A DNA stretch of 64,000 nt from an uncultured Oscillospiraceae bacterium (GTDB lineage: Bacteria > Bacillota > Clostridia > Oscillospirales > Ruminococcaceae). The first letter of the stretch is position 1. Each line of letters starts with the position of its first letter. The position numbers and the translations under genes were made by a program. The stretch lies in NCBI GenBank assembly GCA_964369235.1, contig CAYJEQ010000005.1, forward strand, positions 2,464 through 66,463, written 5' to 3'. The notes under the pieces are model-generated. The model was not told the origin of the DNA, searched no databases, and worked only from the letters and a program-made list of their open reading frames with translations. Positions 11,513 to 29,862 of this stretch are shown here, in pieces.

Positions 11513-13174
11513 TTAAATATCTTCAGGACGGATAGCACCTGAAATGTTGCTAATTTCTTCCCAACGAGCATCGCTCATCTGGTAACCTGTCATTGGACCC
11601 TTATATGTGTTAGGTGCATTAACAGCAGAAATTACATGGAAGCCTTCACCAAAGATGGAAGCTGTATGTAGGTAGTCCCCAGCAACTTTCTGTCTTAGCA
11701 TATTGTATACGCTATCAGCAATATCAGGGTAACCAGCAGCATTTAGACCCTTAACAAAGTCAACACCTGTTACATTTCTTGCCATCATGTCTTCGATTGC
11801 CTGTAGGTCTTCGTTAACATTACGAGGAGGCATATCGTTAGAACCATGAGCATATGTAGCAGCTTCTACTTCTTCGTCAGTAATAGCTGGTAGGCCTAGG
11901 TATTTAAATAGTCCCTGTAGAGCCTTAGCAGCTTTATTTCTAACTCTGATTACATCGTCCTCTGTTACCGGTCTTAGACCACCGTCAATCTTCATATCTC
12001 TCTGAATGATATTCCAGTCATCGTAGTCCTCAGCATCCCAGTTGGAACCAGCGAACATATTGTCATAGTTAGGTGTTGCAGAGTAACCAGAACAAATGTA
12101 GTCAGTACCAGCAAATAGCTGTGGAACACTACGAGCAACTCTTCTTAAATCAGAGTGTGTAAAGGTCTGGTCATTAGATGTTGTGGACTCTAGGTCAAAT
12201 AGCATACCGATTAGATTCTCAGCAGCTACAGCTCTGATACCACCAGGAACACCAGCAGGTACACCGATACAGGAAACAGAACCATTCTGTGTACCCTGTA
12301 CACCAGCACCCTTAGTAACAGCTAGACAACGAGCTTCTAGGTAAAGCATACTCTTACCTTCAGCGTAACCCATCTGTACTTCTGAACCAGTACCGGAAGT
12401 AAATCTCATTTTTAGACCACGGCTAGCATAGCAGGAAGCTAGGAAAGCCTTGGAGTATGGTGTATCATCACCATCCATAAATACAGGCTCTGAACCGTAT
12501 ACTGAGATTGTTTCAGCATATGTTGTAAAGCCCTTCATGCCTAGCTGAAGTTCAGTTGCTTCTTCTAGTGCACACTGTGTCATAACACCAGGTCTACCAA
12601 CCTGAGCACCGATCATTAGTGACATAGCATTAAATGGTGCGTATCTAGCGATACCAACTGTTGTTTCCATTTCGGAGAAACCACGGATACCAGCTTCAGC
12701 TGCATCTGCTGCAATCTGTACAGGATTATCTCGTACATTTGTAACATGGCACTGGTTAGAAGGCATTAGACGAGCACGCATTTTTGACATACCCATCATA
12801 ATTTCTACGATGTTTAGGCAACCAACAACTTCGGTAATTTTAGCCGGTGTTAGAGATAGTGTAATTGCTAGTACTTCGTCACGGGATACATTAATATCAA
12901 CGATTTTTCTAGCGATTTCATTTGAATCCATTGCCATAGCTTTTGCAGCATTGTCAAGACGGATTGCTCTATCAGCGATAAATGTATCAAGCATATCGAA
13001 TTCATCACGGGTTTTACCATCTAGTTCAGTAATTTTGCCGTTTTCGATTTTAATGCTCGGTTTAGGATCAAATGGGCTATTCATGGCAATTAGACCAACC
13101 TCTGCCCACTCTTTAACAAATCCATCCTGATTAACAGGTCTATTTTTTAGAACTTCAAAACGCTTTGATTTCAT
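11513..13174 (-). CDS. pduC: B12-dependent diol/glycerol dehydratase large (alpha) subunit
   Basis: 553 aa starting [23 protein letters not shown]. This N-terminus and the length are characteristic of PduC/DhaB1. Confidence 0.93.
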
Positions 13175-19315: not shown

Positions 19316-21073
19316 CTAAAACTTACTTCTAGCTTTATACTTAGTATGTAGTATTTCATGAGCTTTATGTCCACCAAATTCGTCATTAAAGAACTCTGTG
19401 TAGATTTTCTTTAGAACTGGGTTTTCATGGCTCTTTCTCAGTGTATCCTTAGCATCATCAGCATATAGTGCTGCTGCTCTCTGGCTTCTTAGATCAACGA
19501 AGTTTCTAACTGTAGCACTCTGTACTGGCTGTCCACCACCGTTAATACAACCACCTGGGCAACCCATAATTTCGATAAAGTCATACTCAACTTCACCTGC
19601 TTTAATTCTATCAAGAAGAGTCTGAGCATTTCTTAGGCCAGATGCAACTGCAACTCTAACCTTAGTGCCTTTAAGGTCGTAGGTAGCTTCTTTAATACCT
19701 TCCATACCACGAACTTCCATAAAGTCAAGGCTTGTAGCTGGTAGCTCTTCCCCTGTTACCCACTCAGCAGCAGTTCTTAGAGCAGCTTCCATAACACCAC
19801 CGGTAGCACCGAAGATTGTAGCAGCACCTGTGGAAACACCTAGTGGTGCATCAAATGTGCTATCTGGAAGATGTCTAAAGTAGATACCAGCTCTGCTAAT
19901 CATACGAGCAAGCTCTCTTGTTGTTAGAGCAATATCAACATCGGAGATTCCTTCTCCAGCTGCACACTCATGGTCACGCTTAGTTTCAAACTTCTTAGCT
20001 GTACAAGGCATAATACCTACAACTACAATATCCTTAGGATCTAGGTTGTTTTCCTTAGCATACCATGTTTTAGCTAGAGCACCAAACATCTGCTGTGGTG
20101 ATTTACAAGTAGATAGATTTGGAATCATCTCTGGGTAGTAATGCTCACAGAATTTTACCCAACCTGGAGAACAGGAGGTAATCATTGGCAGTGTGCCACC
20201 CTTAGTAAATCTTTCGATAAACTCGTTAGCTTCCTCTACAATTGTAAAGTCAGCAGCAAGGTCGGTATCATATACACCATCAAAGCCCAGTAGACGCAGT
20301 GCGGTTACCATCTTACCCTCTACATTAGAACCAATGGACATACCAAAAGCTTCCCCTAGAGTTACACGAATAGATGGAGCCGTCTGTACAATAACATGCT
20401 TTGTTGGATCATTAATAGCTGCCCACACATCTTCTGTATGGTCTTTTTCTGTAATAGCACCTGTTGGACATACTACGATACACTGTCCACAGGATACACA
20501 CGCTACCTCACCTAAGTCCATGTCAAAGGCACAACCTATATGAGTATTAAATCCTCTGTCATTGACGCCGATTACAGATACTGACTGCCACTTCTTACAC
20601 GCAGCTACACATCTACGACATAGGATACATTTATTATTATCACGAACCATATGAATTGCTGAGTCATCAAAGTCATATCTAACATTCTCACCAGCAAATC
20701 TATCTTCGTCCTCAACATTAAAGTCCTGACAAAGTTTCTGTAACTCACAGTTGTTAGCTCTTAGACAGGATAGACATTTCTTGTCATGAGTGGATAGTAT
20801 TAGCTCTAGGTTGTTTCTTCTAGAATCAAATACCCTTGTGCTGTTTGTCAGTATTTCCATACCTTCTGATACTGGATGCACACAGGAAGCTACTAGGTTT
20901 TTTGCACCCTTAACTTCTACTACACAGATACGACAAGCACCGATTTCGTTAATCTCTCTTAGGTAACACAGTGTAGGAATCTCAATACTATTCTCCCTAC
21001 ATGCTTCAAGTATTGTGGAGCCAGGTGTAACTTTTGCATCTACACCATTTATTTTAATATTAATTAGTTCCAT
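19316..21073 (-). CDS. hydA: [FeFe]-hydrogenase catalytic subunit (HydA/HndD type)
   Basis: 585 aa. It has an N-terminal plant-type 2Fe-2S site (CYLREINEIGACRIC) and accessory 4Fe-4S motifs. The H-cluster motifs are TSCSPGW (L1), MPCTAKKFE (L2) and EIMGCPGGCINGGG (L3). Confidence 0.92.
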   Translation of the reverse strand: MELINIKINGVDAKVTPGSTILEACRENSIEIPTLCYLREINEIGACRICVVEVKGAKNLVASCVHPVSEGMEILTNSTRVFDSRRNNLELILSTHDKKCLSCLRANNCELQKLCQDFNVEDEDRFAGENVRYDFDDSAIHMVRDNNKCILCRRCVAACKKWQSVSVIGVNDRGFNTHIGCAFDMDLGEVACVSCGQCIVVCPTGAITEKDHTEDVWAAINDPTKHVIVQTAPSIRVTLGEAFGMSIGSNVEGKMVTALRLLGFDGVYDTDLAADFTIVEEANEFIERFTKGGTLPMITSCSPGWVKFCEHYYPEMIPNLSTCKSPQQMFGALAKTWYAKENNLDPKDIVVVGIMPCTAKKFETKRDHECAAGEGISDVDIALTTRELARMISRAGIYFRHLPDSTFDAPLGVSTGAATIFGATGGVMEAALRTAAEWVTGEELPATSLDFMEVRGMEGIKEATYDLKGTKVRVAVASGLRNAQTLLDRIKAGEVEYDFIEIMGCPGGCINGGGQPVQSATVRNFVDLRSQRAAALYADDAKDTLRKSHENPVLKKIYTEFFNDEFGGHKAHEILHTKYKARSKF

Positions 21074-21089
21074 AGTTTCACCTATCCCC

Positions 21090-22880
21090 CTACTTCTTGA
21101 TTATTGCATTAAAACGGCATTTGTCAATACAAGCACCACATTTAACACATTTCTCGGTATCAATTACATGAGCTGTTTTTACAGAGCCTGTAATAGCATC
21201 TGCTGGACAAACCTTAGCACATAGTGTACAACCCTTACAAGCTTCTGGTATTACTACAAAGCTTAGTAGATCCTTACACACACCAGATGGACATCTTTTC
21301 TCTAGGATATGTGCTTCGTACTCATCTCTAAAGAATTTCAGTGTACTTAGTACTGGGTTTGGTGCTGTCTGTCCAAGACCACATAGGGAGTTTTCCTTAA
21401 TATGATGGCAAAGTTTTTCCATCTTATCAATATCAGCCATTGTAGCCTCGCCCTTAGAAATCTTTTCTAGCATTTCGTATAGTCTTTTTGTACCGATACG
21501 ACATGGCACACATTTACCACAGCTCTCGTCTACTGTAAACTCTAGGAAGAATTTAGCGATGTCAACCATACAGTTGTCTTCATCCATTACGATTAGACCA
21601 CCAGATCCCATCATGGATCCGATTTCTACTAGGTTGTCAAAGTCAATCTCGATGTCTAGGTACTGAGGAGGGATACATCCACCAGATGGACCACCTGTCT
21701 GAGCAGCTTTAAACTTCTTGCCATCAGGGATACCACCACCGATTTCTTCAATAACTTCTCTTAGGGTTGTACCCATTGGAATTTCAACTAGACCAGTATT
21801 GTTAATCTTACCACCTAGTGCGAATACCTTAGTACCCTTAGAACGCTCGGTACCCATTGCGCTAAACCACTGAGATCCATTTAGGATGATCTGTGGGATA
21901 TTTGCGTATGTTTCAACATTGTTAAGGATTGTTGGCTTGCCAAACAGCCCCTTAACTGCTGGGAATGGAGGTCTTGGACGAGGCTCACCACGATTACCTT
22001 CAATAGAGGTCATCAGTGCTGTTTCCTCACCACATACGAATGCACCAGCACCCAGTCTAATATGTAGGTCAAAACTAAAGTCACTACCAAAGATATTCTT
22101 ACCTAGTAGACCCATCTCTCTAGCCTGATCAATAGCAATCTGTAGTCTATCTACTGCAATAGGATACTCAGCTCTTACATAAACAAAACCTTCATCAGAT
22201 CCGATTGCATAAGCTGCAATAGCCATTGCTTCAATTAGTACATGTGGATCACCCTCTAGGATGGATCTGTCCATAAATGCACCTGGATCCCCCTCATCGG
22301 CATTACAACACACATACTTCTTCTCAGAAGGTGTTCCCTTAGCAAAGCTCCACTTTAGACCAGTGGAGAAACCACCGCCCCCACGTCCACGAAGACCGGA
22401 GTCTTTAACACAAGAGATAACTTCCTCTGGTGTCATCTCTGTTAGCACTTTACCAAGAGCCTGATAACCATCATAAGCAATATATTCGTTAATATCTTCT
22501 GGATCGATTACACCACAGTTTTTAAGGGCAATTCTAAGCTGCTTCTTATAAAATCCTGTGTTATCCAGTGAGGTAACTGTATCTTCTTTAACTGTTTCTT
22601 TGTATAGAAGTCTTTTTACAATTCTACCCTTTAGTAGGTGTTCTTCTACAATCTCTGGAATATCATTAATATTAACCATAGAATAGAATGCACCCTCTGG
22701 ATAGATAATCATAATAGGGCCTAATGCACATAAACCAAAACATCCTGTTTTGATAACTTTAATTTCTTTTGCTATGCCAGCTTTTTCAATGTTATTTTCT
22801 AAAGCCTCTATAATACGCTCGCTGCCTGAGGAAGTACATCCAGTACCACCACAAACAAGTACATGGGAACGATACATCAC
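21090..22880 (-). CDS. hydB: NuoF-like NAD(P)H-binding flavoprotein subunit of the hydrogenase (HydB/HndC)
   Basis: 596 aa. It has an N-terminal thioredoxin-like 2Fe-2S domain, a GLRGRGGGGFSTGLKW FMN site, and C-terminal 2x[4Fe-4S] motifs (CKGCTLCAKVCP, CVKCGACIDKC). Confidence 0.92.
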   Translation of the reverse strand: MMYRSHVLVCGGTGCTSSGSERIIEALENNIEKAGIAKEIKVIKTGCFGLCALGPIMIIYPEGAFYSMVNINDIPEIVEEHLLKGRIVKRLLYKETVKEDTVTSLDNTGFYKKQLRIALKNCGVIDPEDINEYIAYDGYQALGKVLTEMTPEEVISCVKDSGLRGRGGGGFSTGLKWSFAKGTPSEKKYVCCNADEGDPGAFMDRSILEGDPHVLIEAMAIAAYAIGSDEGFVYVRAEYPIAVDRLQIAIDQAREMGLLGKNIFGSDFSFDLHIRLGAGAFVCGEETALMTSIEGNRGEPRPRPPFPAVKGLFGKPTILNNVETYANIPQIILNGSQWFSAMGTERSKGTKVFALGGKINNTGLVEIPMGTTLREVIEEIGGGIPDGKKFKAAQTGGPSGGCIPPQYLDIEIDFDNLVEIGSMMGSGGLIVMDEDNCMVDIAKFFLEFTVDESCGKCVPCRIGTKRLYEMLEKISKGEATMADIDKMEKLCHHIKENSLCGLGQTAPNPVLSTLKFFRDEYEAHILEKRCPSGVCKDLLSFVVIPEACKGCTLCAKVCPADAITGSVKTAHVIDTEKCVKCGACIDKCRFNAIIKK

Positions 22881-22891
22881 ATTACCTCCTA

Positions 22892-23263
22892 TTATTCAGC
22901 AATATTTCCGATTGTATACTCGGAAACAGGGCTGCCGTTTATTATATGCTCTCTAACAATCTTCTCTACCATTTCAGGTGTAACCTTAACATAGGTCACC
23001 TTCTCTTTGCCACCTTCATGGATTTCTACTACTGGCTCAAACTGGCAGATACCTATGCATCCTGTTTGCGCAACTGTAACATTTGAAACCCCACGCTTAG
23101 CAACTTCCTCGGTAAACTGTGTTAGCACCGGTCTAGCACCTGCTGCAATACCACAGGTAGCCATACCTACTACTATTCTAATATTATCATCATCATCGTG
23201 TCTAACGCCAATCTTATTCTGCATCTGGTCACGAAGTGCTTTTAGTTCTTCTAGGCTTTTCAT
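22892..23263 (-). CDS. Thioredoxin-like [2Fe-2S] ferredoxin (HndB-like)
   Basis: 123 aa with Cys pairs in MATCGIAAGA and TGCIGICQFEP. It lies between the ATPase and hydB. Confidence 0.75.
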   Translation of the reverse strand: MKSLEELKALRDQMQNKIGVRHDDDDNIRIVVGMATCGIAAGARPVLTQFTEEVAKRGVSNVTVAQTGCIGICQFEPVVEIHEGGKEKVTYVKVTPEMVEKIVREHIINGSPVSEYTIGNIAE

Positions 23264-23290
23264 AATCGAAATCTCCCTCTCTAAAATAGC

Positions 23291-23863
23291 TTATATAGAT
23301 TTAATTAGTGTTTGTGTGTTTTCATTAATATACTCTTTAATAAATAGTGATACTTCAGGCAGTGATAGTGGAATATCTCCTAGAATTTCTCTAAGCTCTA
23401 CTGTGCTTACCATAAATTCTCTACCATTATATATATACCTGTAAGCTACCTCTGCACCTTCTTCATTACCTGCTAGTATACAATATGTTGCCGCTATATC
23501 CCCCATAGGCATTAAATTAATATGTCCTAAGGTAAACTTAGCCTCAACCTTTGTACCTACATCTTTGGTAGAAATAATGGAAAAACTGCCATCACATAGC
23601 TCCGCAGCCATCTTAAAAAAAGGCACTCCAAAACCTACTTTTCTCGTTGTTCTAGTGGTAAAGAAAGGATTTACTACAGACTCTAGCTGTTTTTCGTCCA
23701 TGCCACATCCGTCATCTTCTATAGTCACCATCAATGTATTTGTGTGGGTGTTTTCATCAATAGTTATAGTTAGAAGTTTAGCCTCTGCTCTAAGAGAATT
23801 ATTAGCAAGATCTAGTATATGTAGAGATAGTTCACTTAGCATATGTATAACCATGCCTTTCAC
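23291..23863 (-). CDS. Stand-alone GHKL (histidine-kinase-like) ATPase domain protein inside the hydrogenase operon
   Basis: 190 aa. It has an N-box (HILDLANNSLRA), a G1 box (DDGCGM) and a G2-like box (GFGVPF). No DHp/His-phosphoacceptor or sensor domain is present. It uses a GTG start with an AGGGA RBS. Confidence 0.7.
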   Translation of the reverse strand: MKGMVIHMLSELSLHILDLANNSLRAEAKLLTITIDENTHTNTLMVTIEDDGCGMDEKQLESVVNPFFTTRTTRKVGFGVPFFKMAAELCDGSFSIISTKDVGTKVEAKFTLGHINLMPMGDIAATYCILAGNEEGAEVAYRYIYNGREFMVSTVELREILGDIPLSLPEVSLFIKEYINENTQTLIKSI

Positions 23864-23901
23864 TTATATCCCTTGGGATATATTGTATTGGTAAGAATAT
23901 A

Positions 23902-24399
23902 TTACACCATGTATTTTTCAACAATTGAGTCAACTTCTTCTACTAATAGTCTGCCGTAAACATCTTCATTAACTGTAATTACTGGTGCTAGACCACAAGC
24001 GCCGATACATCTACAAGCTTCCAGTGAAAATTTACCGTCGTCGGTACATTCGCCACCTGCAATACCAAGCTTTTGGCTAAGTCTATCAAAGACATCACCT
24101 GCGCCTTTAACATAGCAAGCTGTTCCAAGACAGACAGAAATTTTATAATCACCTTTCGGATTTAGGGAGAACTGGGAGTAAAATGTTACTACACCATATA
24201 CCTCAGCTAAGGGAATATCAAGTTCTGTAGATATTATGCGTTGTACCTCTAAAGGAAGGTATCCATATATTTCTTGTGCTTCCTGTAGCACTGGCATTAG
24301 AGCACCTTGCTCGTCCTTGTTTAGGCTAATTACTTCTAGAAGTTTTTCTTCTTGCTCTTTAGTACCCTTAAAAGGGATTTTGGTTTTTTTATTAACCAC
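23902..24399 (-). CDS. hydC: NuoE-like [2Fe-2S] subunit of the hydrogenase (HydC/HndA)
   Basis: 165 aa with the Cys pattern CLGTACYVKG...CRCIGACGLAP, typical of NuoE/HydC. It is the first gene of the operon. Confidence 0.88.
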   Translation of the reverse strand: MVNKKTKIPFKGTKEQEEKLLEVISLNKDEQGALMPVLQEAQEIYGYLPLEVQRIISTELDIPLAEVYGVVTFYSQFSLNPKGDYKISVCLGTACYVKGAGDVFDRLSQKLGIAGGECTDDGKFSLEACRCIGACGLAPVITVNEDVYGRLLVEEVDSIVEKYMV

Positions 24400-24782
24400 T
24401 TGTTCTGCCTCCTTAATGGATTTTACATAGCTAAGTCAATGTCTTATACCAAATCATTACTGATTTGATTATTAATTTTCATGATATTTCACCTTGCTAA
24501 TTCTGATAATATAGTAAAATATCCGATACTAAAACTTAAAGACATATAGCTACTATAATTTGCTCCTTAAAATTGCTAAGATATAGGGCTGTCAAAATAA
24601 CCCTTAAAACATTATACTCAATCGTTAAATTAAAGTCAATACGATTTAAAAAGTGAATTATTTTTTTCACTTCTGCACAAAAAATAAGCACAAATTTTAG
24701 CACTAATATTTTAACAACTTGCCAAATTAATTTGCATTTAGATAAATAGATATAAATTCGTTAAATAATAAATTAAATATGG

Positions 24783-24811
24783 TTGTTTTGACAAATTACT
24801 CGTGCTATAAT
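24783..24811 (+). promoter_or_regulatory. Putative sigma-A promoter with extended -10 for the sensory operon
   Basis: TTGTTT, then 17 nt, then TGcTATAAT (-10 at 24806-24811). It lies 55 nt upstream of the ATG at 24867. Confidence 0.4.
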
Positions 24812-24866
24812 GTAACAAAGGTTATATACTATAAAGTTATTTACACTATATAAGGAGTAAAATTAT

Positions 24867-25214
24867 ATGACAATTAATAGGATTAAAGAACTACTAGAAG
24901 CTACTGTTATCTGTGGCGATGACAATCTAGACCAAGAGGTACTTACCGCTTGTGGAAGCGATATGATGAGTGATGTATTAGCCTATGTAAAAGAACAGTC
25001 CATTTTGCTTACAGGACTTGTGAATTCACAGGTTATACGCACTGCAGAGATGATGGATTTTAGCTGTGTAATTTTTGTCCGTGGGAAAAAGCCTGATCAG
25101 GATATGATTGATCTTGCCAATGACCGAGGAATTATACTTATGTCCTCGCCTAAAAGAATGTTTGTTGCCTGTGGGATTCTTTATCAAAATGGATTAAAAG
25201 GAGAGCTGGAATAA
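24867..25214 (+). CDS. DRTGG-domain protein
   Basis: 115 aa, small single-domain protein (…SILLTGLVNSQVIRTAEMMDFSCVIFVRGKKP…GIILM). It has an AAGGAG RBS. The family assignment is from memory. Confidence 0.55.
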   Translation: MTINRIKELLEATVICGDDNLDQEVLTACGSDMMSDVLAYVKEQSILLTGLVNSQVIRTAEMMDFSCVIFVRGKKPDQDMIDLANDRGIILMSSPKRMFVACGILYQNGLKGELE

Positions 25215-25633
25215 TGTCATTACTATCCTTGGTTTTTACTGTAGATGGTGATGATTTTAGCCGAGCTGGAACCGCATCTAGCAGTACCAAAGCACAACTA
25301 AAAAAACTAGGACTGCCCTCTGATATTATCAGAAGGGTAGCTATTGCTATGTATGAAGGCGAGATAAACATGGTAATACACGCAAATGGTGGTACTGCCT
25401 CAGTGGAGGTAAAGGAAGACTCTATTATAATAACGCTAAATGATGTAGGTCCAGGTATCCCTGATATTCCTAAAGCTATGGAAGAAGGATTTTCCACTGC
25501 CACTGATACTGTACGCAGTTTAGGTTTTGGGGCTGGTATGGGGCTACCTAATATGAAAAAATACACCGATAGTATTGACATCACCAGTGAAGTAGGTGTT
25601 GGTACTAATGTAATTATGCTTATTAATATTTAA
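25214..25633 (+). CDS. Anti-sigma-factor-like GHKL ATPase / serine kinase
   Basis: 139 aa. It has an N-box-like EGEINMVIHA, a G1 box DVGPGIPD and a G2 box GFGAGMGLPN, resembling SpoIIAB/RsbW-type proteins. Its start overlaps the previous stop (TAATG). Confidence 0.65.
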   Translation: MSLLSLVFTVDGDDFSRAGTASSSTKAQLKKLGLPSDIIRRVAIAMYEGEINMVIHANGGTASVEVKEDSIIITLNDVGPGIPDIPKAMEEGFSTATDTVRSLGFGAGMGLPNMKKYTDSIDITSEVGVGTNVIMLINI

Positions 25634-25655
25634 AAACTAATATAAGGAGAGGCCA

Positions 25656-26999
25656 ATGGAAGGATATTTTCATTCAGTTGGACTGGTGGAAGAGTTGTGC
25701 CGTGGATGTACTAACTGTGTCCGTCGATGTCCTACAGAAGCTATAAGAGTTCGTAACGGCAAAGCCCTTATTATAAAAGATAGGTGTATAGATTGTGGCG
25801 AGTGTATACGCATCTGTCCCCATAGTGCTAAACAAGCCGTTGTAAGCAAGTTAGATTCCCTAGATAGCTTTAAATATAAAATCGCACTGCCTGCCCCTAG
25901 CCTATATGCCCAGTTTAATAATCTTGGATCACCTAATATAGTCCTATCAGCCCTAAAAAAATTTGGCTTTGATATGGTTTATGAGGTATCCCAAGCAGCA
26001 GAGATAATCACCCAAAGCACCAAGATGATTTTAAAAGAGAACACTGCAAAAAAGCCAATTTTAAGCTCAGCCTGTCCAGCAGTATTACGACTGATTTCTG
26101 TTAGATTCCCTGAGCTTATCGATAATATATTACCTCTTAAAGCCCCCGTGGCACTGGCTGCTATAAATGCTAGAGAGATTGCTAAAAAAACTACAGGGCT
26201 TTCCGATAATGAAATAGGCGTAGCCTTTATTACTCCATGTCCTGCTAAGGTTACCGAAATTAAATCCCCATTGCTAGATAATCAAATACTAATTGATGAG
26301 GTTATGAGCATCTCAGACATCTATCCCAAACTACTGTCCTTAATGGATACTGCTGATATGCACTCCCATCTATCAGCCTCTGGCAGTGTTGGTGTAGGTT
26401 GGGCAAGTAGTGGTGGAGAATGTTATGGCTTAGACACAGACAGCTATCTTGCAGCCGATGGGATCGAGAATGTTATTGGGGTGCTAGAAGGGCTAGAAGA
26501 CGAGAAAATGCGAAATCTTAATTTTGTAGAGTTAAATGCCTGTCCTGGTGGTTGCGTAGGTGGAGTATTAACTATAGAAAATCCATTTATAGCTAGAACA
26601 AAGCTGGTAAACCTCAGAAAAAAACTGCCATATAATAAGAACTATATAGATGACACCCTGCCTGTGGCAGCTAAGGCAGATATGAGCATTCAGTACAGTC
26701 CAGCTATGCGACTTGATGAGAATTTCGTAGAGGCTTCTAAGAAGCTTAAAAGGCTCAGAGAGATAGAAGCTGGATTATATGGGCTAGACTGTGGCTCCTG
26801 TGGAGCACCAAGTTGTAGATGTTTAGCCGAGGATATAGTAAGAGGATATGCCACTGAGGAATACTGTGTATACAAAATGGCAGAGCTTGCCTCAGACTCT
26901 GATAATCCTATTAATCCCCTACCAATAGCCTTTAGAACTAAGGAACCTCGAACTATACCCCCTATTAGAAAGTCAGGAGAGAGAAAAGATGATTGGTAA
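25656..26999 (+). CDS. Sensory-type [FeFe]-hydrogenase homologue (HydS-like, no PAS domain)
   Basis: 447 aa. It has N-terminal 2x[4Fe-4S] motifs (CRGCTNCVRRCP, CIDCGECIRICP). The H-domain motifs are SSACPAV (L1, with the relay Cys replaced by Ala), TPCPAKVTE (L2) and ELNACPGGCVGG (L3). There is an extra C-terminal Cys cluster, CGSCGAPSCRC...C. Confidence 0.8.
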   Translation: MEGYFHSVGLVEELCRGCTNCVRRCPTEAIRVRNGKALIIKDRCIDCGECIRICPHSAKQAVVSKLDSLDSFKYKIALPAPSLYAQFNNLGSPNIVLSALKKFGFDMVYEVSQAAEIITQSTKMILKENTAKKPILSSACPAVLRLISVRFPELIDNILPLKAPVALAAINAREIAKKTTGLSDNEIGVAFITPCPAKVTEIKSPLLDNQILIDEVMSISDIYPKLLSLMDTADMHSHLSASGSVGVGWASSGGECYGLDTDSYLAADGIENVIGVLEGLEDEKMRNLNFVELNACPGGCVGGVLTIENPFIARTKLVNLRKKLPYNKNYIDDTLPVAAKADMSIQYSPAMRLDENFVEASKKLKRLREIEAGLYGLDCGSCGAPSCRCLAEDIVRGYATEEYCVYKMAELASDSDNPINPLPIAFRTKEPRTIPPIRKSGERKDDW

Positions 27000-27315
27000 A
27001 ATTATAGCAGATGAGAATTTCACAGAGGAAGTAATGGTAGAAGACAGGGAGATAAGCTCTATCTACTGTTGTGACCTACTGAGTATAGCAATGGCTAAAG
27101 CTCCTATGGACGGTATCTGGGTTACTGTTATGGCAAATGCCAATACCCTTGCAGTTGCAAGCCTAGCTGATATATCCTGTGTGGTCTTTGCCGATGGTAC
27201 TCGACTAACACCACAGGACAGTCAAACAGCAAAGGATAAAGGTATTAATGTGCTTTATACAAACCTTGATATATTTACTGCTGCAGTTAAAATCAAAGAA
27301 ATACTAGGACTATAA
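26989..27315 (+). CDS. Second DRTGG-domain protein
   Basis: 108 aa (…GIWVTVMANANTLAVASLADISCVVFADGTRL…). It overlaps the upstream stop by 11 nt. Confidence 0.5.
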   Translation: MIGKIIADENFTEEVMVEDREISSIYCCDLLSIAMAKAPMDGIWVTVMANANTLAVASLADISCVVFADGTRLTPQDSQTAKDKGINVLYTNLDIFTAAVKIKEILGL

Positions 27316-27353
27316 TTTATGCTTATGACTATACATTTAAGGAGGTGGCTTAA

Positions 27354-28067
27354 CTGGAGATAAAATACGATTTACATATCCATTCCTGTTTATCCCCCTG
27401 TGGTGATGATGCCATGACTCCCGATGTAATAGCTGGCATAGCAGCCTTAAATGGACTTGATCTCATAGCCCTTACTGACCATAACTGTGCCCTCAACTGC
27501 CATGCCACTAAAGAAGCTTGTGATAATTATGGTATTAGTTTTATAGCTGGGGTAGAGGTAACTACAGCAGAAGATGTACATATAGTCAGCCTTTTTCCTA
27601 GCTGTGATGATGCAGTTAATTTTAGCAATGAGCTTAGTAGCCACCTGCCACCTATTAAAAATAAAGAGAAAATCTTTGGCAATCAGCTGGTGGCAGATAT
27701 TAATGGCGCGACCATATCCACAGTGGAAAATCTACTTATTATGGCTGTTTCCCTTAATATTTCCCAGTGTGTAAAACTGGCAGAAAAACATGGTGGTTTT
27801 TCCTTTCCAGCCCATGTGGAAAAGGATAGTAATAGTATACTTGCCATATTAGGTGGATTTCCACAGGAATGTGATTTTCCACTAATAGAGGTAAAGAATA
27901 TGGACAAGGCAAATAGCAACCCACTTTTTGAAAGTGAAATAAATGGCAGAAGGGTAATTAGCTCCTCCGATGCTCACTACCCTCACCAAATCACCCAAGA
28001 TGGAGATAGTTTCCTCAGTGATGGCAGTGATTTTTACAGTGTTAGAAAGGCTCTTATGGGTTATTAG
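27354..28067 (+). CDS. PHP-domain phosphoesterase
   Basis: The PHP metal motif YDLHIHSCLSPCGDD lies upstream of the first ATG (27414). The frame is open back to the stop at 27351-27353. The only start with good RBS spacing is CTG at 27354, 8 nt after AAGGAGGTGG. Confidence 0.7.
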   Translation: MEIKYDLHIHSCLSPCGDDAMTPDVIAGIAALNGLDLIALTDHNCALNCHATKEACDNYGISFIAGVEVTTAEDVHIVSLFPSCDDAVNFSNELSSHLPPIKNKEKIFGNQLVADINGATISTVENLLIMAVSLNISQCVKLAEKHGGFSFPAHVEKDSNSILAILGGFPQECDFPLIEVKNMDKANSNPLFESEINGRRVISSSDAHYPHQITQDGDSFLSDGSDFYSVRKALMGY

Positions 28068-28170
28068 TATAACAAGATAAATTACTGCAATAGTCTATAA
28101 TTCCCCTAGAATATTTAGAATGGTATAGCCCATGTGTAAATAAAACATCAAGAAAGGATTGGACATTTAT

Positions 28171-29862
28171 ATGATAAAGATACCTGGTACTATTATGTCA
28201 GAAGGTCTTGCCATTGGAAATGTAGTTATCCCTCAAATGTCTATGGCAACCTTAGAGTTTACCCCTTGTGAAGATAAAGATGCGGAGAAAATCAAGGTTA
28301 ACAAAGCCTTAAAGGTTGCCATAACCTCTCAACAGATGCTTATTAATCACCATAGTTCTGGCAATAAAGACACAAGAGATATACTTATGGCATATCTATT
28401 TATGCTAAAAGACCCCGACCTTAAGGTGCAAATCCATCAAGCTATAGACAATGAGGGCTGTTCAGCACCTTGGGCTGTAAAACAGGTTTTTGACAGTATG
28501 ATAATGTCACTATATAGCTGTGATGACAGTTATATGAAAAGTCGTGGTGAAGATCTATCCAATGTTATGAACCGTCTTGTGGATATACTACAGGGTAGGG
28601 ATCACAATGAGCCTACTCAGATTAAAGAAGGCTCTATACTAGTATTTAACAGTATCTCACCTTCTCAGTTTGCAGCATTAGATCTTAGTAAAGTTGCTGG
28701 ATTTATCTCTGCTACTGGCAGTGCCGGATCCCATATTGCCATTATGGCAAGAGCTGCACAGATACCAGCTATCTGTTGTAAAGCAGATGATATTGAGAAA
28801 ATTTCCTCTGGTCAGTCGGTTGTTTTAGACTCGGTAAATGCAACTATTATAGTAAATCCTAAACAGGATATACTAGCCCGTTACATTAACACTATTATGC
28901 AGAGAAAAGAAATTCTCAAAGAAGAACTGGAGTTTAAAAACAAAGCTAGTAAAACCAAAGACGGTGTAGAAATCCCAGTGGAAGCTAATATATCCAGTTT
29001 AAAGGATATGCCTTCTACAGTTGAGTATCACGCCAGTGGTATAGGACTTGTAAGAACGGAGTTTTTATTTGAAAATGGTCTACCCTCCTGTCAAGAACAG
29101 TTTGAAAAATACAAAAAAATTCTTGAGATGATGTCTGGTAAGCCTGTTGTCTTTAGATTATTAGATGTAGGTGGGGATAAACTATCCAGCCTAAATAATT
29201 ACAAAGAGGATAATCCCTTCCTAGGCAATCGTGGTATAAGACTTCTAACCCACCACAAAGATGTAATTGCCACCCAGATTAAAGCCCTATTAATGGCTTC
29301 TCCATTTGGTGATGCTACAATACTTCTACCAATGATATCCTCGGTAGACGAAGTAAGAGTAGTAAAAAAAGTTATTAAGAAAATTAAAAAAGAACTTATA
29401 AAAGACAATATTCTTTTTGATGATAAAATTAAAGTTGGTGCTATGATAGAGGTGCCTTCTGCAGCAATTCTAGCAGATGAAATTGCCAAAGAGGTGGATC
29501 TATTTAGTATAGGCACCAATGATTTAACCCAGTATACACTGGCTGTAGACAGAACAAATCCTCTAGTAGCCTCTCTATATAATAACTGCCACCCAGCTGT
29601 ATTAAAGTTAATGGAAATGACCGTTAACGCTGCCGACAAAGCAGGTATACCTGTATGTGTATGTGGCGAGATGGCTTCCCAGATTAATATGGTAAGACTG
29701 CTTCTAGGACTGGGTATAGACAAAATCAGCATTAGCCCTAATATGATATGTAGTGTACGCCACGAGCTATCTAAATACACTATGGAGGAAAATATCCACC
29801 TTGCCAACCGTGCAAAACGCTGTATATCTGCTGAGGCTGTGTACGCACTGCTAAGAAACTAA
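28171..29862 (+). CDS. ptsI: Phosphoenolpyruvate-protein phosphotransferase (PTS Enzyme I family)
   Basis: About 563 aa. It has the phospho-His motif GSAGSHIAIMARAAQIPA, the PEP-binding motif FSIGTNDLTQY, and the catalytic Cys in VCVCGEMAS. I chose the ATG at 28171 (MIKIPGT...) over the TTG at 28159. Confidence 0.85.
   Translation: MIKIPGTIMSEGLAIGNVVIPQMSMATLEFTPCEDKDAEKIKVNKALKVAITSQQMLINHHSSGNKDTRDILMAYLFMLKDPDLKVQIHQAIDNEGCSAPWAVKQVFDSMIMSLYSCDDSYMKSRGEDLSNVMNRLVDILQGRDHNEPTQIKEGSILVFNSISPSQFAALDLSKVAGFISATGSAGSHIAIMARAAQIPAICCKADDIEKISSGQSVVLDSVNATIIVNPKQDILARYINTIMQRKEILKEELEFKNKASKTKDGVEIPVEANISSLKDMPSTVEYHASGIGLVRTEFLFENGLPSCQEQFEKYKKILEMMSGKPVVFRLLDVGGDKLSSLNNYKEDNPFLGNRGIRLLTHHKDVIATQIKALLMASPFGDATILLPMISSVDEVRVVKKVIKKIKKELIKDNILFDDKIKVGAMIEVPSAAILADEIAKEVDLFSIGTNDLTQYTLAVDRTNPLVASLYNNCHPAVLKLMEMTVNAADKAGIPVCVCGEMASQINMVRLLLGLGIDKISISPNMICSVRHELSKYTMEENIHLANRAKRCISAEAVYALLRN

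Follow-up and report, generated by a model that had tools for sequence, protein, structure and literature searches.

How might a putative hydrogen sensor signal when neither it nor its neighbors carry the domains of a two-component system? This question was raised by five genes that lie next to a hydABC operon in a 64,000-nucleotide stretch of DNA from an uncultured Oscillospiraceae bacterium (GenBank assembly GCA_964369235.1, contig CAYJEQ010000005.1, positions 2,464 to 66,463; referred to here as the window). The five genes are transcribed divergently from hydC and encode, in order, a first DRTGG-domain protein (DRTGG1), a GHKL ATPase (GHKL139), a sensory-type [FeFe]-hydrogenase homologue (HydS), a second DRTGG-domain protein (DRTGG2), and a PHP-family phosphoesterase (PHP). 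The results presented here indicated that the locus is very probably a conserved signaling cassette of a group D sensor. They also suggested a way in which the cassette may act, namely, as an H2-gated serine/threonine phospho-switch that works post-translationally on the electron-bifurcating enzyme. We put the probability of this reading at roughly one half.

The open reading frames (ORFs) of the window were assigned with Pfam and NCBIfam profiles, and PDB and BLASTP comparisons were also made. The ORF listing placed five closely spaced frames on the + strand between positions 24867 and 28067, and the Pfam matches agreed with the domains that an initial annotation, made from the sequence letters, had given them. 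The tight spacing described in that annotation was borne out when the junctions were read: the DRTGG1 and GHKL139 genes met in a TAATG (1-nt overlap), a 22-nt gap carrying the ribosome-binding site AAGGAGAG separated the GHKL139 and HydS genes, and the HydS and DRTGG2 genes overlapped by 11 nt. None of the cassette proteins matched a PAS, receiver, HisKA/DHp, or DNA-binding/helix-turn-helix profile in Pfam or NCBIfam, in line with the earlier statement that two-component logic does not apply. No public names were on record for the window proteins. As for the divergent operon, Pfam identified the hydC product as NuoE-like and the hydB product as NuoF-like, which made it the operon of a NuoE/NuoF-type electron-bifurcating [FeFe]-hydrogenase.

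HydS had the domain composition of an [FeFe]-hydrogenase. Specifically, Pfam returned two Fer4 motifs, Fe_hyd_lg_C (1.7e-30), and the FeS domain PF04060, and residues 11-58 were matched by Fer4, Fer4_10, and Fer4_9. In a 15-sequence alignment, C15, C18, C21, C25, C44, C47, C50, and C54 were invariant, as were the H-cluster cysteines C140, C195, C296, and C300. The H-cluster cysteines aligned with those in the TSCCP, MPC, and CxxGC motifs of T. kivui HydA1 (PDB 8a6t), but the motifs themselves differed between the two proteins: TSCCP had become SSACP, MPC had become TPC, and GGGQP had become GVLT. Thus, the proton-relay Cys (Cys299) was replaced by Ala and Met353 by Thr (ITPCPAK). A Ser or Thr preceded the PC of the second H-cluster motif in 80/80 HydS homologues, and the same 80 kept the C-terminal Cx2Cx4Cx16C motif, which in HydS consists of C379, C382, C387, and C404. 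Pfam detected no PAS domain, and the 43 residues that follow C404 are too few to form one; HydS was therefore assigned to the sensors without PAS.

Judged by these residues, HydS matched the hallmarks of the putative sensory group D (M2e) rather than those of the catalytic group A. A search of the PDB by sequence found no group C or group D hydrogenase structure. The published group D locus-tag spacing fit the co-directional gene order, and this fit was the sole support that bore on placement with reference group D sequences. The only characterized member of group D (M2e) is TamHydS of Thermoanaerobacter mathranii, which interconverts H+ and H2 reversibly at low rates, and TamHydS is also the only member for which high H2 affinity, low turnover, and CO tolerance have been reported (PMC8163306). 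HydS and TamHydS both have two N-terminal [4Fe-4S] motifs, an H-domain, a C-terminal Cx2Cx4Cx16C cluster, and no PAS domain. In both, another residue stands in for the proton-relay Cys, a hydroxyl residue takes the place of Met353, and the gene lies beside a trimeric bifurcating hydrogenase and a histidine-kinase-like ATPase. They differ at position 497, which is Leu in TamHydS and Asn in the window HydS. Taken together, the group D hallmarks and the features shared with TamHydS (PMC8163306) suggest, in line with the initial annotation, that HydS is a sensory-type protein and not a normal catalytic enzyme.

Published work on TamHydS has dealt with the isolated protein, and its partners are described there as unidentified (PMC8163306, PMC10407848, PMC13104023), whereas the window HydS is viewed here together with its neighbors. 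Carere et al. (2012) reported that group D M2e genes (Cthe_0335, TTE0887, Athe_1292, and others) lie a few genes from trimeric hydrogenases (PMC3561251). The link between a group D sensor, a protein kinase, and a trimeric hydrogenase has thus been published (PMC3561251, PMC8163306). A paper of April 2026 reported that the C-terminal cluster is not reduced by H2 and called the identification of partners "evidently critical" (PMC13104023). The signaling route of group D sensors is still unexplained in that paper, which agrees with the earlier remark that the module has no defined mechanism.

If the five genes form a functional unit, as had been proposed, they should be found together elsewhere. 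One genome per species was scanned, and 80 loci were recovered. They belonged to Oscillospiraceae, Acutalibacteraceae, Lachnospiraceae, and relatives, and HydS identities ranged from 49 to 56%. The order DRTGG1 - kinase - HydS - DRTGG2 - PHP was intact in 76 of the 80 loci. The four exceptions were three truncated contigs and one locus with a displaced PHP gene. The HydS homologues reached E-values of 1e-193, and these values and the conserved order together are far beyond chance. The neighborhood comparison that had been set as a check on the module thus came out in favor of co-conservation. The proposed linkage to HydABC held as the usual arrangement and not as a rule: the HydABC operon adjoined the cassette in 47 loci (28 divergent, 19 co-directional) and was definitely absent within 7 kb in 13, and the other 20 loci could not be called. 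No further gene family was common to more than 11 of the 80 loci. In Acutalibacteraceae-type genomes, the cassette was located away from HydABC (L001:6726-9115, 12339-12788), and its flanks carried genes for a second PHP protein (292 aa), an unannotated 191-aa protein, a PNP_UDP_1 phosphorylase, and a C_GCAxxG_C_C putative redox-active protein; these flanking genes were common to 9-11 loci.

We turn now to the proteins on either side of HydS. The GHKL139 protein matched HATPase_c and HATPase_c_2 in Pfam. It scored 53.7 bits against the NCBIfam anti-sigma F profile (TIGR01925, SpoIIAB), which is under the cut-off of 135, and 18.8 bits against the RsbW profile, for which the cut-off is 145. Its closest PDB match was SpoIIAB (1til, E 2e-7). 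The N box (E48, N52, H56), G1 box (D77xGxG81), and G2 box (G104FGAGMGLPN) were 100% conserved among 80 sequences; when these boxes were considered together with the PHP metal ligands described below, conservation was 97-100%. The DRTGG1 protein passed the Pfam DRTGG profile (PF07085; 31.2 bits, cut-off 25.2), and the DRTGG domain of the cassette also gave a weak Pfam cross-match to Hpr_kinase_N. Three DRTGG1 motifs, ACGSDMMSDVLA, LLTGLxNxQVxRTA, and FVRGKxP, were 97-100% conserved among 80 sequences. The stop codon of the DRTGG1 gene overlapped the start of the kinase gene in 70 of 79 loci.

A stronger connection between DRTGG1 and the kinase came from other lineages. DRTGG1 was searched against 1.84 billion representative proteins, and a second search was made with one fusion protein. 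More than 120 protein clusters of other lineages contained a DRTGG1-kinase fusion of about 270 aa, where only proteins of the DRTGG-HATPase_c_2 architecture were counted. The fusions came from Thermovenabulum, Thermosediminibacter, Caldanaerovirga, Tepidanaerobacteraceae, Aminicenantales, and Desulfobacterota, and their public names were "anti-sigma regulatory factor (Ser/Thr protein kinase)" or "RsbT." In the AlphaFold model of the Thermovenabulum fusion (mean predicted local distance difference test score [pLDDT] of 89.9, predicted template-modeling score of 0.79), the C-terminal half superimposed on SpoIIAB with a template-modeling score (TM) of 0.85 and a root-mean-square deviation (rmsd) of 2.0 A, and RsbW was also matched. 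The N-terminal half matched the DRTGG protein AF1212 (PDB 2ioj) with a TM of 0.81, and the DRTGG domain of a CBS-pyrophosphatase (3l31) was also among its matches. No match to a STAS domain was obtained with this model. These findings agree with the earlier description of the ATPase as SpoIIAB/RsbW-like, by sequence for the window protein and by predicted fold as well for its orthologue. In addition, the fusion serves as Rosetta-stone evidence for a physical partnership between DRTGG1 and the kinase. Long proteins that paired a partial DRTGG1 (mostly residues 1-85) with SPOR, peptidase M3, ArgJ, or Pyr_redox_2 domains looked chimeric and were set aside. At one locus (L156), DRTGG1 and the kinase occurred without the remaining cassette members.

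DRTGG2 scored 20.5 bits against Pfam DRTGG, under the cut-off, and its orthologues at other loci passed. BLASTP identified DRTGG2 and DRTGG1 as clear paralogues (E 2e-9). In DRTGG2, residues D29, L30, L31, S32, T46, and N50 were 99-100% conserved. The TGGDR signature of the family was altered in both proteins, to TGLxN in DRTGG1 and to T-x-x-x-N in DRTGG2. T49 of DRTGG1 was considered as a phospho-acceptor and dropped, because the whole family has a Thr at this place in its TGGDR signature and conservation of T49 is therefore not distinctive. Seemingly fused HydS-DRTGG2 proteins (569 and 539 aa) were artifacts of ORF extension and contained internal stops. The DRTGG2 gene overlapped or abutted the PHP gene in 51 of 77 loci. 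This coupling and the overlap of the DRTGG1 and kinase genes noted above pointed to two adaptor-enzyme pairs. The DRTGG1-kinase fusion and the DRTGG2-PHP coupling fit adaptor roles for the two DRTGG proteins at least as well as they fit roles as phospho-acceptor substrates.

The start of the PHP gene had to be moved. The ORF listing had opened the gene at ATG 27414, and so did the public gene call for the contig, with the loss of the HxH metal motif. The frame upstream of this ATG ran from a stop codon through LEIKYDLHIHSCLSPCGDDA, which bears the HxH motif, and all 77 PHP homologues (77/77) began at a start equivalent to CTG 27354, three to six residues ahead of YDLHIHSCLSPCGD. An AGGAGG ribosome-binding site was located 8 nt ahead of CTG 27354, and no ATG, GTG, or TTG was present at the conserved start (27340-27416). 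The PHP start was therefore assigned to CTG 27354. With the N terminus that begins at this CTG, the protein passed the Pfam PHP profile (PF02811; 32.9 bits against a cut-off of 26.4), and the metal ligands D6, H8, H10, D42, H43, E68, H76, H154, D206, and H208 were conserved in 78 sequences. Directly after the HxH motif was a family-specific C12x3C16, whose cysteines were 96% and 100% conserved. Position 79 was Cys in 92% of the homologues and Ser in the window protein. These conserved cysteines could form a redox-sensitive or metal-binding site. Profiles of the PHP subfamilies (pAp phosphatase, RNase AM, EndoQ, TrlF, and histidinol phosphatase) gave at best 46 bits against a cut-off of 400, with lower scores for the others, and the PDB matches of PHP spanned only about the N-terminal 80 residues.

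The module turned out to be larger than the five genes that had been proposed. The set itself held, and a second ATPase gene, which encodes GHKL190 within the hyd operon, and probably hydD varied together with the PHP gene. The initial annotation had already named this ATPase as one to be tested with the five proteins. The GHKL190 ORF opened at GTG 23863 (190 aa), and ATG 23842 gave a protein of 183 aa. Because the first seven residues of the longer version were missing from 92-98% of homologues, the protein most likely starts at ATG 23842. GHKL190 matched HATPase_c and HATPase_c_3 in Pfam and carried some 70 further residues in a C-terminal domain that lacked any conserved His. Its model (pLDDT 88.3) matched histidine-kinase CA domains, and the full-length model also gave weak matches to MutL/PMS2 N-terminal, TopoVI-B, and ParE fragments (TM ~0.5, rmsd ~6 A). 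The GHKL190 gene was always beside hydC/nuoE in related loci and directly after the PHP gene in other phyla. Among the 35 loci with enough downstream sequence for a count, PHP and GHKL190 occurred together in 29, neither occurred in 4, and PHP occurred without GHKL190 in 2, possibly because the contig ended or the genes were laid out divergently. HydD was present wherever PHP and GHKL190 adjoined NuoE/NuoF and absent from the type III loci (see below) that lacked both. Thus, GHKL190 is the sixth member of the module, and HydD is probably an accessory or regulatory member. In Acetomicrobium mobile, the NiFe-HydABCSL operon encodes HydD and a HisK; both were absent from the purified holoenzyme and were assumed to be regulatory or maturation factors (PMC8880783). 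HisK is the A. mobile homologue of GHKL190.

To these 80 genome loci we added 92 further loci, which comprised the contexts of fusion proteins and 80 metagenome loci. Neighbors were clustered without bias in the 80 genome loci, and the additional 92 were examined with a targeted protein panel and, for a few, by Pfam context. Three arrangements were distinguished. In type I, the order was DRTGG1/kinase - HydS - DRTGG2 - PHP - GHKL190 - NuoE - HydD - NuoF, followed by a catalytic partner that was an [FeFe] HydA, a NuoG-like protein with MvhD and [NiFe] small and large subunits, or an FdhA-like protein. The [NiFe] versions had HdrCBA-like genes upstream. In type II, which was found at about 16 loci (including L083, L093, L157, L160, L164, L166, L169, and L172), the cassette had no HydS and was followed by NuoE - HydD - NuoF. 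These sensor-less cassettes retained DRTGG1-kinase, DRTGG2, PHP, and GHKL190 (L083:10001-12822; L157:8001-14535; L169:8001-14597). GHKL190 was thus kept even where the sensor was gone, and HydS is dispensable in these related loci. At the two type II loci examined by Pfam, NuoF was fused to a GltD-like module (~1020 aa). A stand-alone receiver followed GHKL190 in only one locus, a sensor-less one from Desulfobacterota. In type III (six loci), the order was DRTGG2 - DRTGG1/kinase - HydS - NuoE - NuoF - FdhA, and no HydA, PHP, GHKL190, or HydD was found at these loci (L091:3800-11300, L136, L150, L151). HydS of type III might sense H2 on behalf of a formate-dehydrogenase-type enzyme, or it might be the subunit that handles H2.

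Because the cassette accompanied [FeFe], [NiFe], FdhA-like, and GltD-fused enzymes, its constant partner was the NuoE/NuoF flavin module and not HydA. The pairing with HydABC that had been suggested thus applied to the window and did not extend across lineages, in which the catalytic partner varied. A wider generalization, which we offer as tentative and consider less likely than not, is that DRTGG1-kinase, DRTGG2, PHP, GHKL190, and HydD make up a multi-phylum post-translational control system, hitherto unrecognized, that is dedicated to NuoE/NuoF-type enzymes (HydABC or the Bfu family). DRTGG proteins would take the place of STAS proteins and PHP that of PP2C, and HydS would be a plug-in input that can even report H2 to a [NiFe] enzyme.

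For the window locus, the proposed phospho-switch would run as follows. HydS, as its motifs suggest, would bind H2 and slowly turn it over at an H-cluster with an altered proton pathway; H2 binding and slow turnover with an altered proton pathway have been shown for TamHydS (PMC8163306). DRTGG1 and DRTGG2 would serve as adaptors that read the H2-dependent redox or conformational state of HydS, with DRTGG1 tethered to the GHKL139 kinase and DRTGG2 translationally coupled to PHP. The opposing activities of the kinase and the phosphoesterase would then set the phosphorylation of a target, which is likely to lie in or on the NuoE/NuoF module and for which HydC, HydB, HydD, and GHKL190 are candidates. 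As a result, the activity or assembly of the enzyme would be tuned post-translationally and not through a DNA-binding regulator. Gene content, synteny, motif conservation, the fusion, and the spread of partner enzymes were observed directly; all that goes beyond them is inferred, including which protein accepts the phosphate and which way the system responds. Three observations argue for a post-translational output: the surveyed neighbors included no conserved DNA-binding partner, GHKL190 is embedded among structural genes, and the cassette tracks NuoE/NuoF across unrelated catalytic partners.

Several points weigh against the phospho-switch. The phosphorylation, the substrate, and the protein contacts of every cassette member are all matters that we infer. 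The kinase is closest to proteins that phosphorylate STAS partners and hold sigma factors captive, and the cassette has neither a STAS protein nor a sigma factor. Fusion to a kinase does not mark a domain as its substrate, since a sensor or docking function is equally likely. The nearest characterized relatives of PHP are nucleotidases and nucleases and not protein phosphatases, and the profile scores were far under the cut-offs. In 13 of the 80 genomes, no NuoEF enzyme of any kind was found within 7 kb of the cassette. Finally, in Thermovenabulum gondwanense, the rex gene and the start of the gene for the DRTGG-kinase fusion share 4 nt (L081:9372-10813, L082:85-1526). This overlap puts a redox repressor and the cassette in one operon, and a transcriptional route therefore exists in at least one lineage.

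Such a route is the core of the alternative that survived best, which we nevertheless regard as rather unlikely for this locus. According to it, the cassette is a transcriptional partner switch: GHKL139 would be a true anti-sigma factor or a kinase that sequesters a regulator, a DRTGG protein would stand in for STAS as the antagonist that is phosphorylated and PHP for PP2C, and the signal would end at an unlinked sigma factor or a repressor such as Rex that controls hydABC and fermentation genes. The resemblance of the kinase to SpoIIAB/RsbW in sequence, and of its orthologue in predicted fold, is what this alternative would lead one to expect, as are the public names of the orthologues (anti-sigma regulatory factor or RsbT), the rex overlap in Thermovenabulum, and the separation of the cassette from HydABC in 13 of the 80 genomes. 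Moreover, deletion of hfsB, which encodes a group C sensor, raises adhE transcripts (PMC5707799). The gene neighborhoods pointed the other way. No DNA-binding protein, sigma factor, STAS protein, or PP2C was found near the cassette among the conserved neighbors of the 80 genome loci, which were the loci surveyed without bias, and sigma factors, STAS proteins, and PP2C were likewise missing from those contexts among the 92 further loci that were annotated with Pfam. A global switch would also have no need to track NuoE/NuoF across operons and phyla.

Control by Rex was considered for the window locus and dropped. There was no rex homologue in the window or the 80 genome loci and no Rex box (≤3 mismatches) in the hydC/DRTGG1 intergenic region, and Rex box matches in the window as a whole were at chance level. 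The intergenic region contained a promoter-like TTGACT-17-TATAAT on the - strand (24639-24611) and an extended -10 sequence, TGTTAAAAT, on the - strand upstream of hydC (24716-24705). With ≤2 mismatches allowed, the latter recurred in 20 of the 26 divergent intergenic regions from related genomes; shuffled controls gave 11 at most. A conserved operator was also sought, and the lone over-represented 12-mer was the extended -10 element TGnTAAAAT of hydC. The TGTTAAAAT element is thus probably the hydC promoter rather than an operator.

Next in standing, and improbable in our judgment, is a role in maturation or assembly, in which GHKL190 would be an Hsp90/MutL-like ATPase; HydD, PHP, and the DRTGG proteins would aid cofactor insertion, assembly, or repair of NuoEF; and HydS would be a scaffold or checkpoint. 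The HATPase_c_3 match of GHKL190 and the MutL/PMS2, TopoVI-B, and ParE matches of its full-length model are consistent with such a role, although these structural matches were weak, and so is the joint gain and loss of PHP, GHKL190, and HydD. A SpoIIAB-type kinase and a hydrogenase whose H-cluster site is intact but whose proton relay is disabled are features of signaling and not of a chaperone. In addition, T. maritima HydABC has no GHKL190 or HydD homologue in the published operon figure.

Nucleotide signaling, with PHP as the hydrolase of a nucleotide messenger or 3',5'-bisphosphate, nucleotide-responsive DRTGG proteins, and GHKL proteins as ATP-binding switches, seems very improbable. The closest characterized relatives of PHP are a 3',5'-bisphosphate nucleotidase, RNase AM, and EndoQ, but the subfamily scores are far under the cut-offs (e.g., 46 versus 400 bits). 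Similarly, only those CBS-pyrophosphatases that contain a DRTGG domain respond to diadenosine polyphosphates, but the nucleotides bind to the CBS domains and not to the DRTGG domain (bioRxiv 10.1101/2020.04.07.028951). No nucleotide cyclase or synthetase was conserved in the 80 genome loci.

The last alternative, that HydS is an ordinary catalytic subunit among unrelated housekeeping genes, could appeal to the reversible, low-rate H+/H2 interconversion of TamHydS and to the type III loci, where HydS directly precedes NuoE-NuoF-FdhA with no other hydrogenase gene in view, but it is scarcely credible given that the proton-transfer residues of HydS are replaced, that the window encodes a complete catalytic HydA 5 kb from it, that the flanking genes are strictly syntenic and some are fused, and that the same cassette serves [NiFe] enzymes, since an [FeFe]-type sensor that accompanies a [NiFe] enzyme argues against a catalytic role.

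The phospho-switch proposed here has parallels in known systems. In the group C hfs system, HfsC is an anti-sigma-like Ser/Thr kinase, and HfsD is a SpoIIE-type PP2C phosphatase. Deletions in hfsABCD of Thermoanaerobacterium saccharolyticum show a regulatory role that requires hfsC and hfsD (PMC5707799). The group C (M2f) hfsABCD genes and Ruminococcus albus HydS resemble the window cassette in that a sensory-type [FeFe]-hydrogenase, a kinase, and a phosphatase are located beside fermentation hydrogenases, there is no classical two-component output, and genetics points to a regulatory role (PMC5707799; Zheng et al. 2014 as cited there). The two differ in that group C sensors carry a C-terminal PAS domain, whereas the window cassette has no PAS or PP2C match in Pfam and instead combines a pair of DRTGG proteins with a PHP phosphoesterase and an additional GHKL ATPase. 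The HoxBC and HoxJ/HoxA system of Ralstonia eutropha also uses a low-activity hydrogenase as an H2 sensor, which controls hydrogenase function via a kinase (as summarized in PMC5707799). However, its sensor is a [NiFe] enzyme, its kinase is a PAS histidine kinase, and its output is a DNA-binding response regulator, none of which is found in the cassette.

The SpoIIAB-SpoIIAA-SpoIIE and RsbW-RsbV-RsbU/P modules share with the cassette a GHKL serine kinase of about 140 aa with the same fold (orthologue TM of 0.85), small partners of about 110 aa, and an opposing phosphatase. Unlike these modules, the cassette has no STAS partner, sigma factor, or PP2C; its partners have the DRTGG fold, its candidate phosphatase is PHP, and many lineages have one of the partners fused to the kinase. 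The DRTGG fold itself is shared with CBS-pyrophosphatases, AF1212, and the N-terminal domain of HPr kinase, in which it stands beside a phosphoryl-transfer enzyme as a regulatory or oligomerization element. The cassette differs in that its DRTGG domains are stand-alone or fused to GHKL and form two diverged paralogues.

Post-translational switching of a multi-subunit redox complex by GHKL-fold serine kinases and dedicated phosphatases is seen in the mitochondrial pyruvate dehydrogenase and branched-chain ketoacid dehydrogenase complexes. The kinases of these complexes, PDK and BCKDK, were among the structural matches of the cassette GHKL models. The relationship is one of GHKL fold only, and the targets and docking domains differ. 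To our knowledge, phosphorylation of HydABC has never been shown.

With regard to what is new, it was already known that the sensor class exists and that it is loosely associated with kinases and trimeric hydrogenases. No paper connecting DRTGG domains with hydrogenases or kinases turned up in full-text literature searches. Likewise, we did not find in the searchable literature the composition of paired DRTGG adaptors, PHP, and a second GHKL ATPase; the DRTGG1-kinase fusion; the sensor-less and [NiFe]-linked variants; or the general link to NuoEF-type enzymes. The analysis names candidates for the partners of a group D sensor, namely, an adaptor-fused kinase, an adaptor-coupled phosphoesterase, and a second ATPase with HydD, and it names the NuoE/NuoF module as the candidate target. 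Electron-bifurcating hydrogenases set the balance of H2, NADH, and ferredoxin in the fermenters of guts, rumens, digesters, and biofuel strains. If the post-translational switch is real, it would be the first case known of a flavin-based bifurcating enzyme regulated by phosphorylation and would provide a handle for engineering H2 and ethanol yields.

The coordinates of the features are collected in Table 1.

Table 1. Features of the cassette and the divergent hyd operon, in positions of the window
Feature	Position	Strand	Description
DRTGG1	24867..25214	+	115 aa; stand-alone DRTGG-domain protein, kinase partner
GHKL139	25214..25633	+	139 aa; SpoIIAB/RsbW-type GHKL ATPase, putative serine/threonine kinase
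HydS	25656..26999	+	447 aa; group D (M2e)-type putative sensory [FeFe]-hydrogenase without PAS
DRTGG2	26989..27315	+	108 aa; DRTGG1 paralogue, PHP partner
PHP-family metal-dependent phosphoesterase	27354..28067	+	237 aa; apparent CTG start codon
GHKL190	23291..23842	-	183 aa; histidine-kinase-type ATP-binding domain and small C-terminal alpha/beta domain; between hydC and hydD
HydD	22892..23263	-	123 aa; thioredoxin-like [2Fe-2S] protein; Pfam 2Fe-2S_thioredx
hydC - GHKL190 - hydD - hydB - hydA operon	19316..24399	-	NuoE/NuoF-type electron-bifurcating [FeFe]-hydrogenase, probable regulated target; assigned from ORFs and Pfam
Divergent promoter region, hydC/DRTGG1 gene	24400..24866	.	

Two other genes of the window deserve mention. 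A gene for a phosphotransferase system Enzyme I-like protein (28159-29862, TTG start) begins 92 nt downstream of the PHP gene and encodes the N-terminal, mobile, and C-terminal domains of PEP-utilizers. This PtsI-like gene was considered as a cassette member and rejected, since it was next to the cassette in 0/80 related genome loci. The HydA protein of the window (19316-21073, - strand) has TSCSPGW in place of the textbook TSCCPGW. The same TSCSPGW was present in 33/33 HydA proteins of related loci and in HydA1 of Acetobacterium woodii (PDB 7q4v). At the position of this Ser, the CpI motif has its second Cys, the cluster ligand Cys300.

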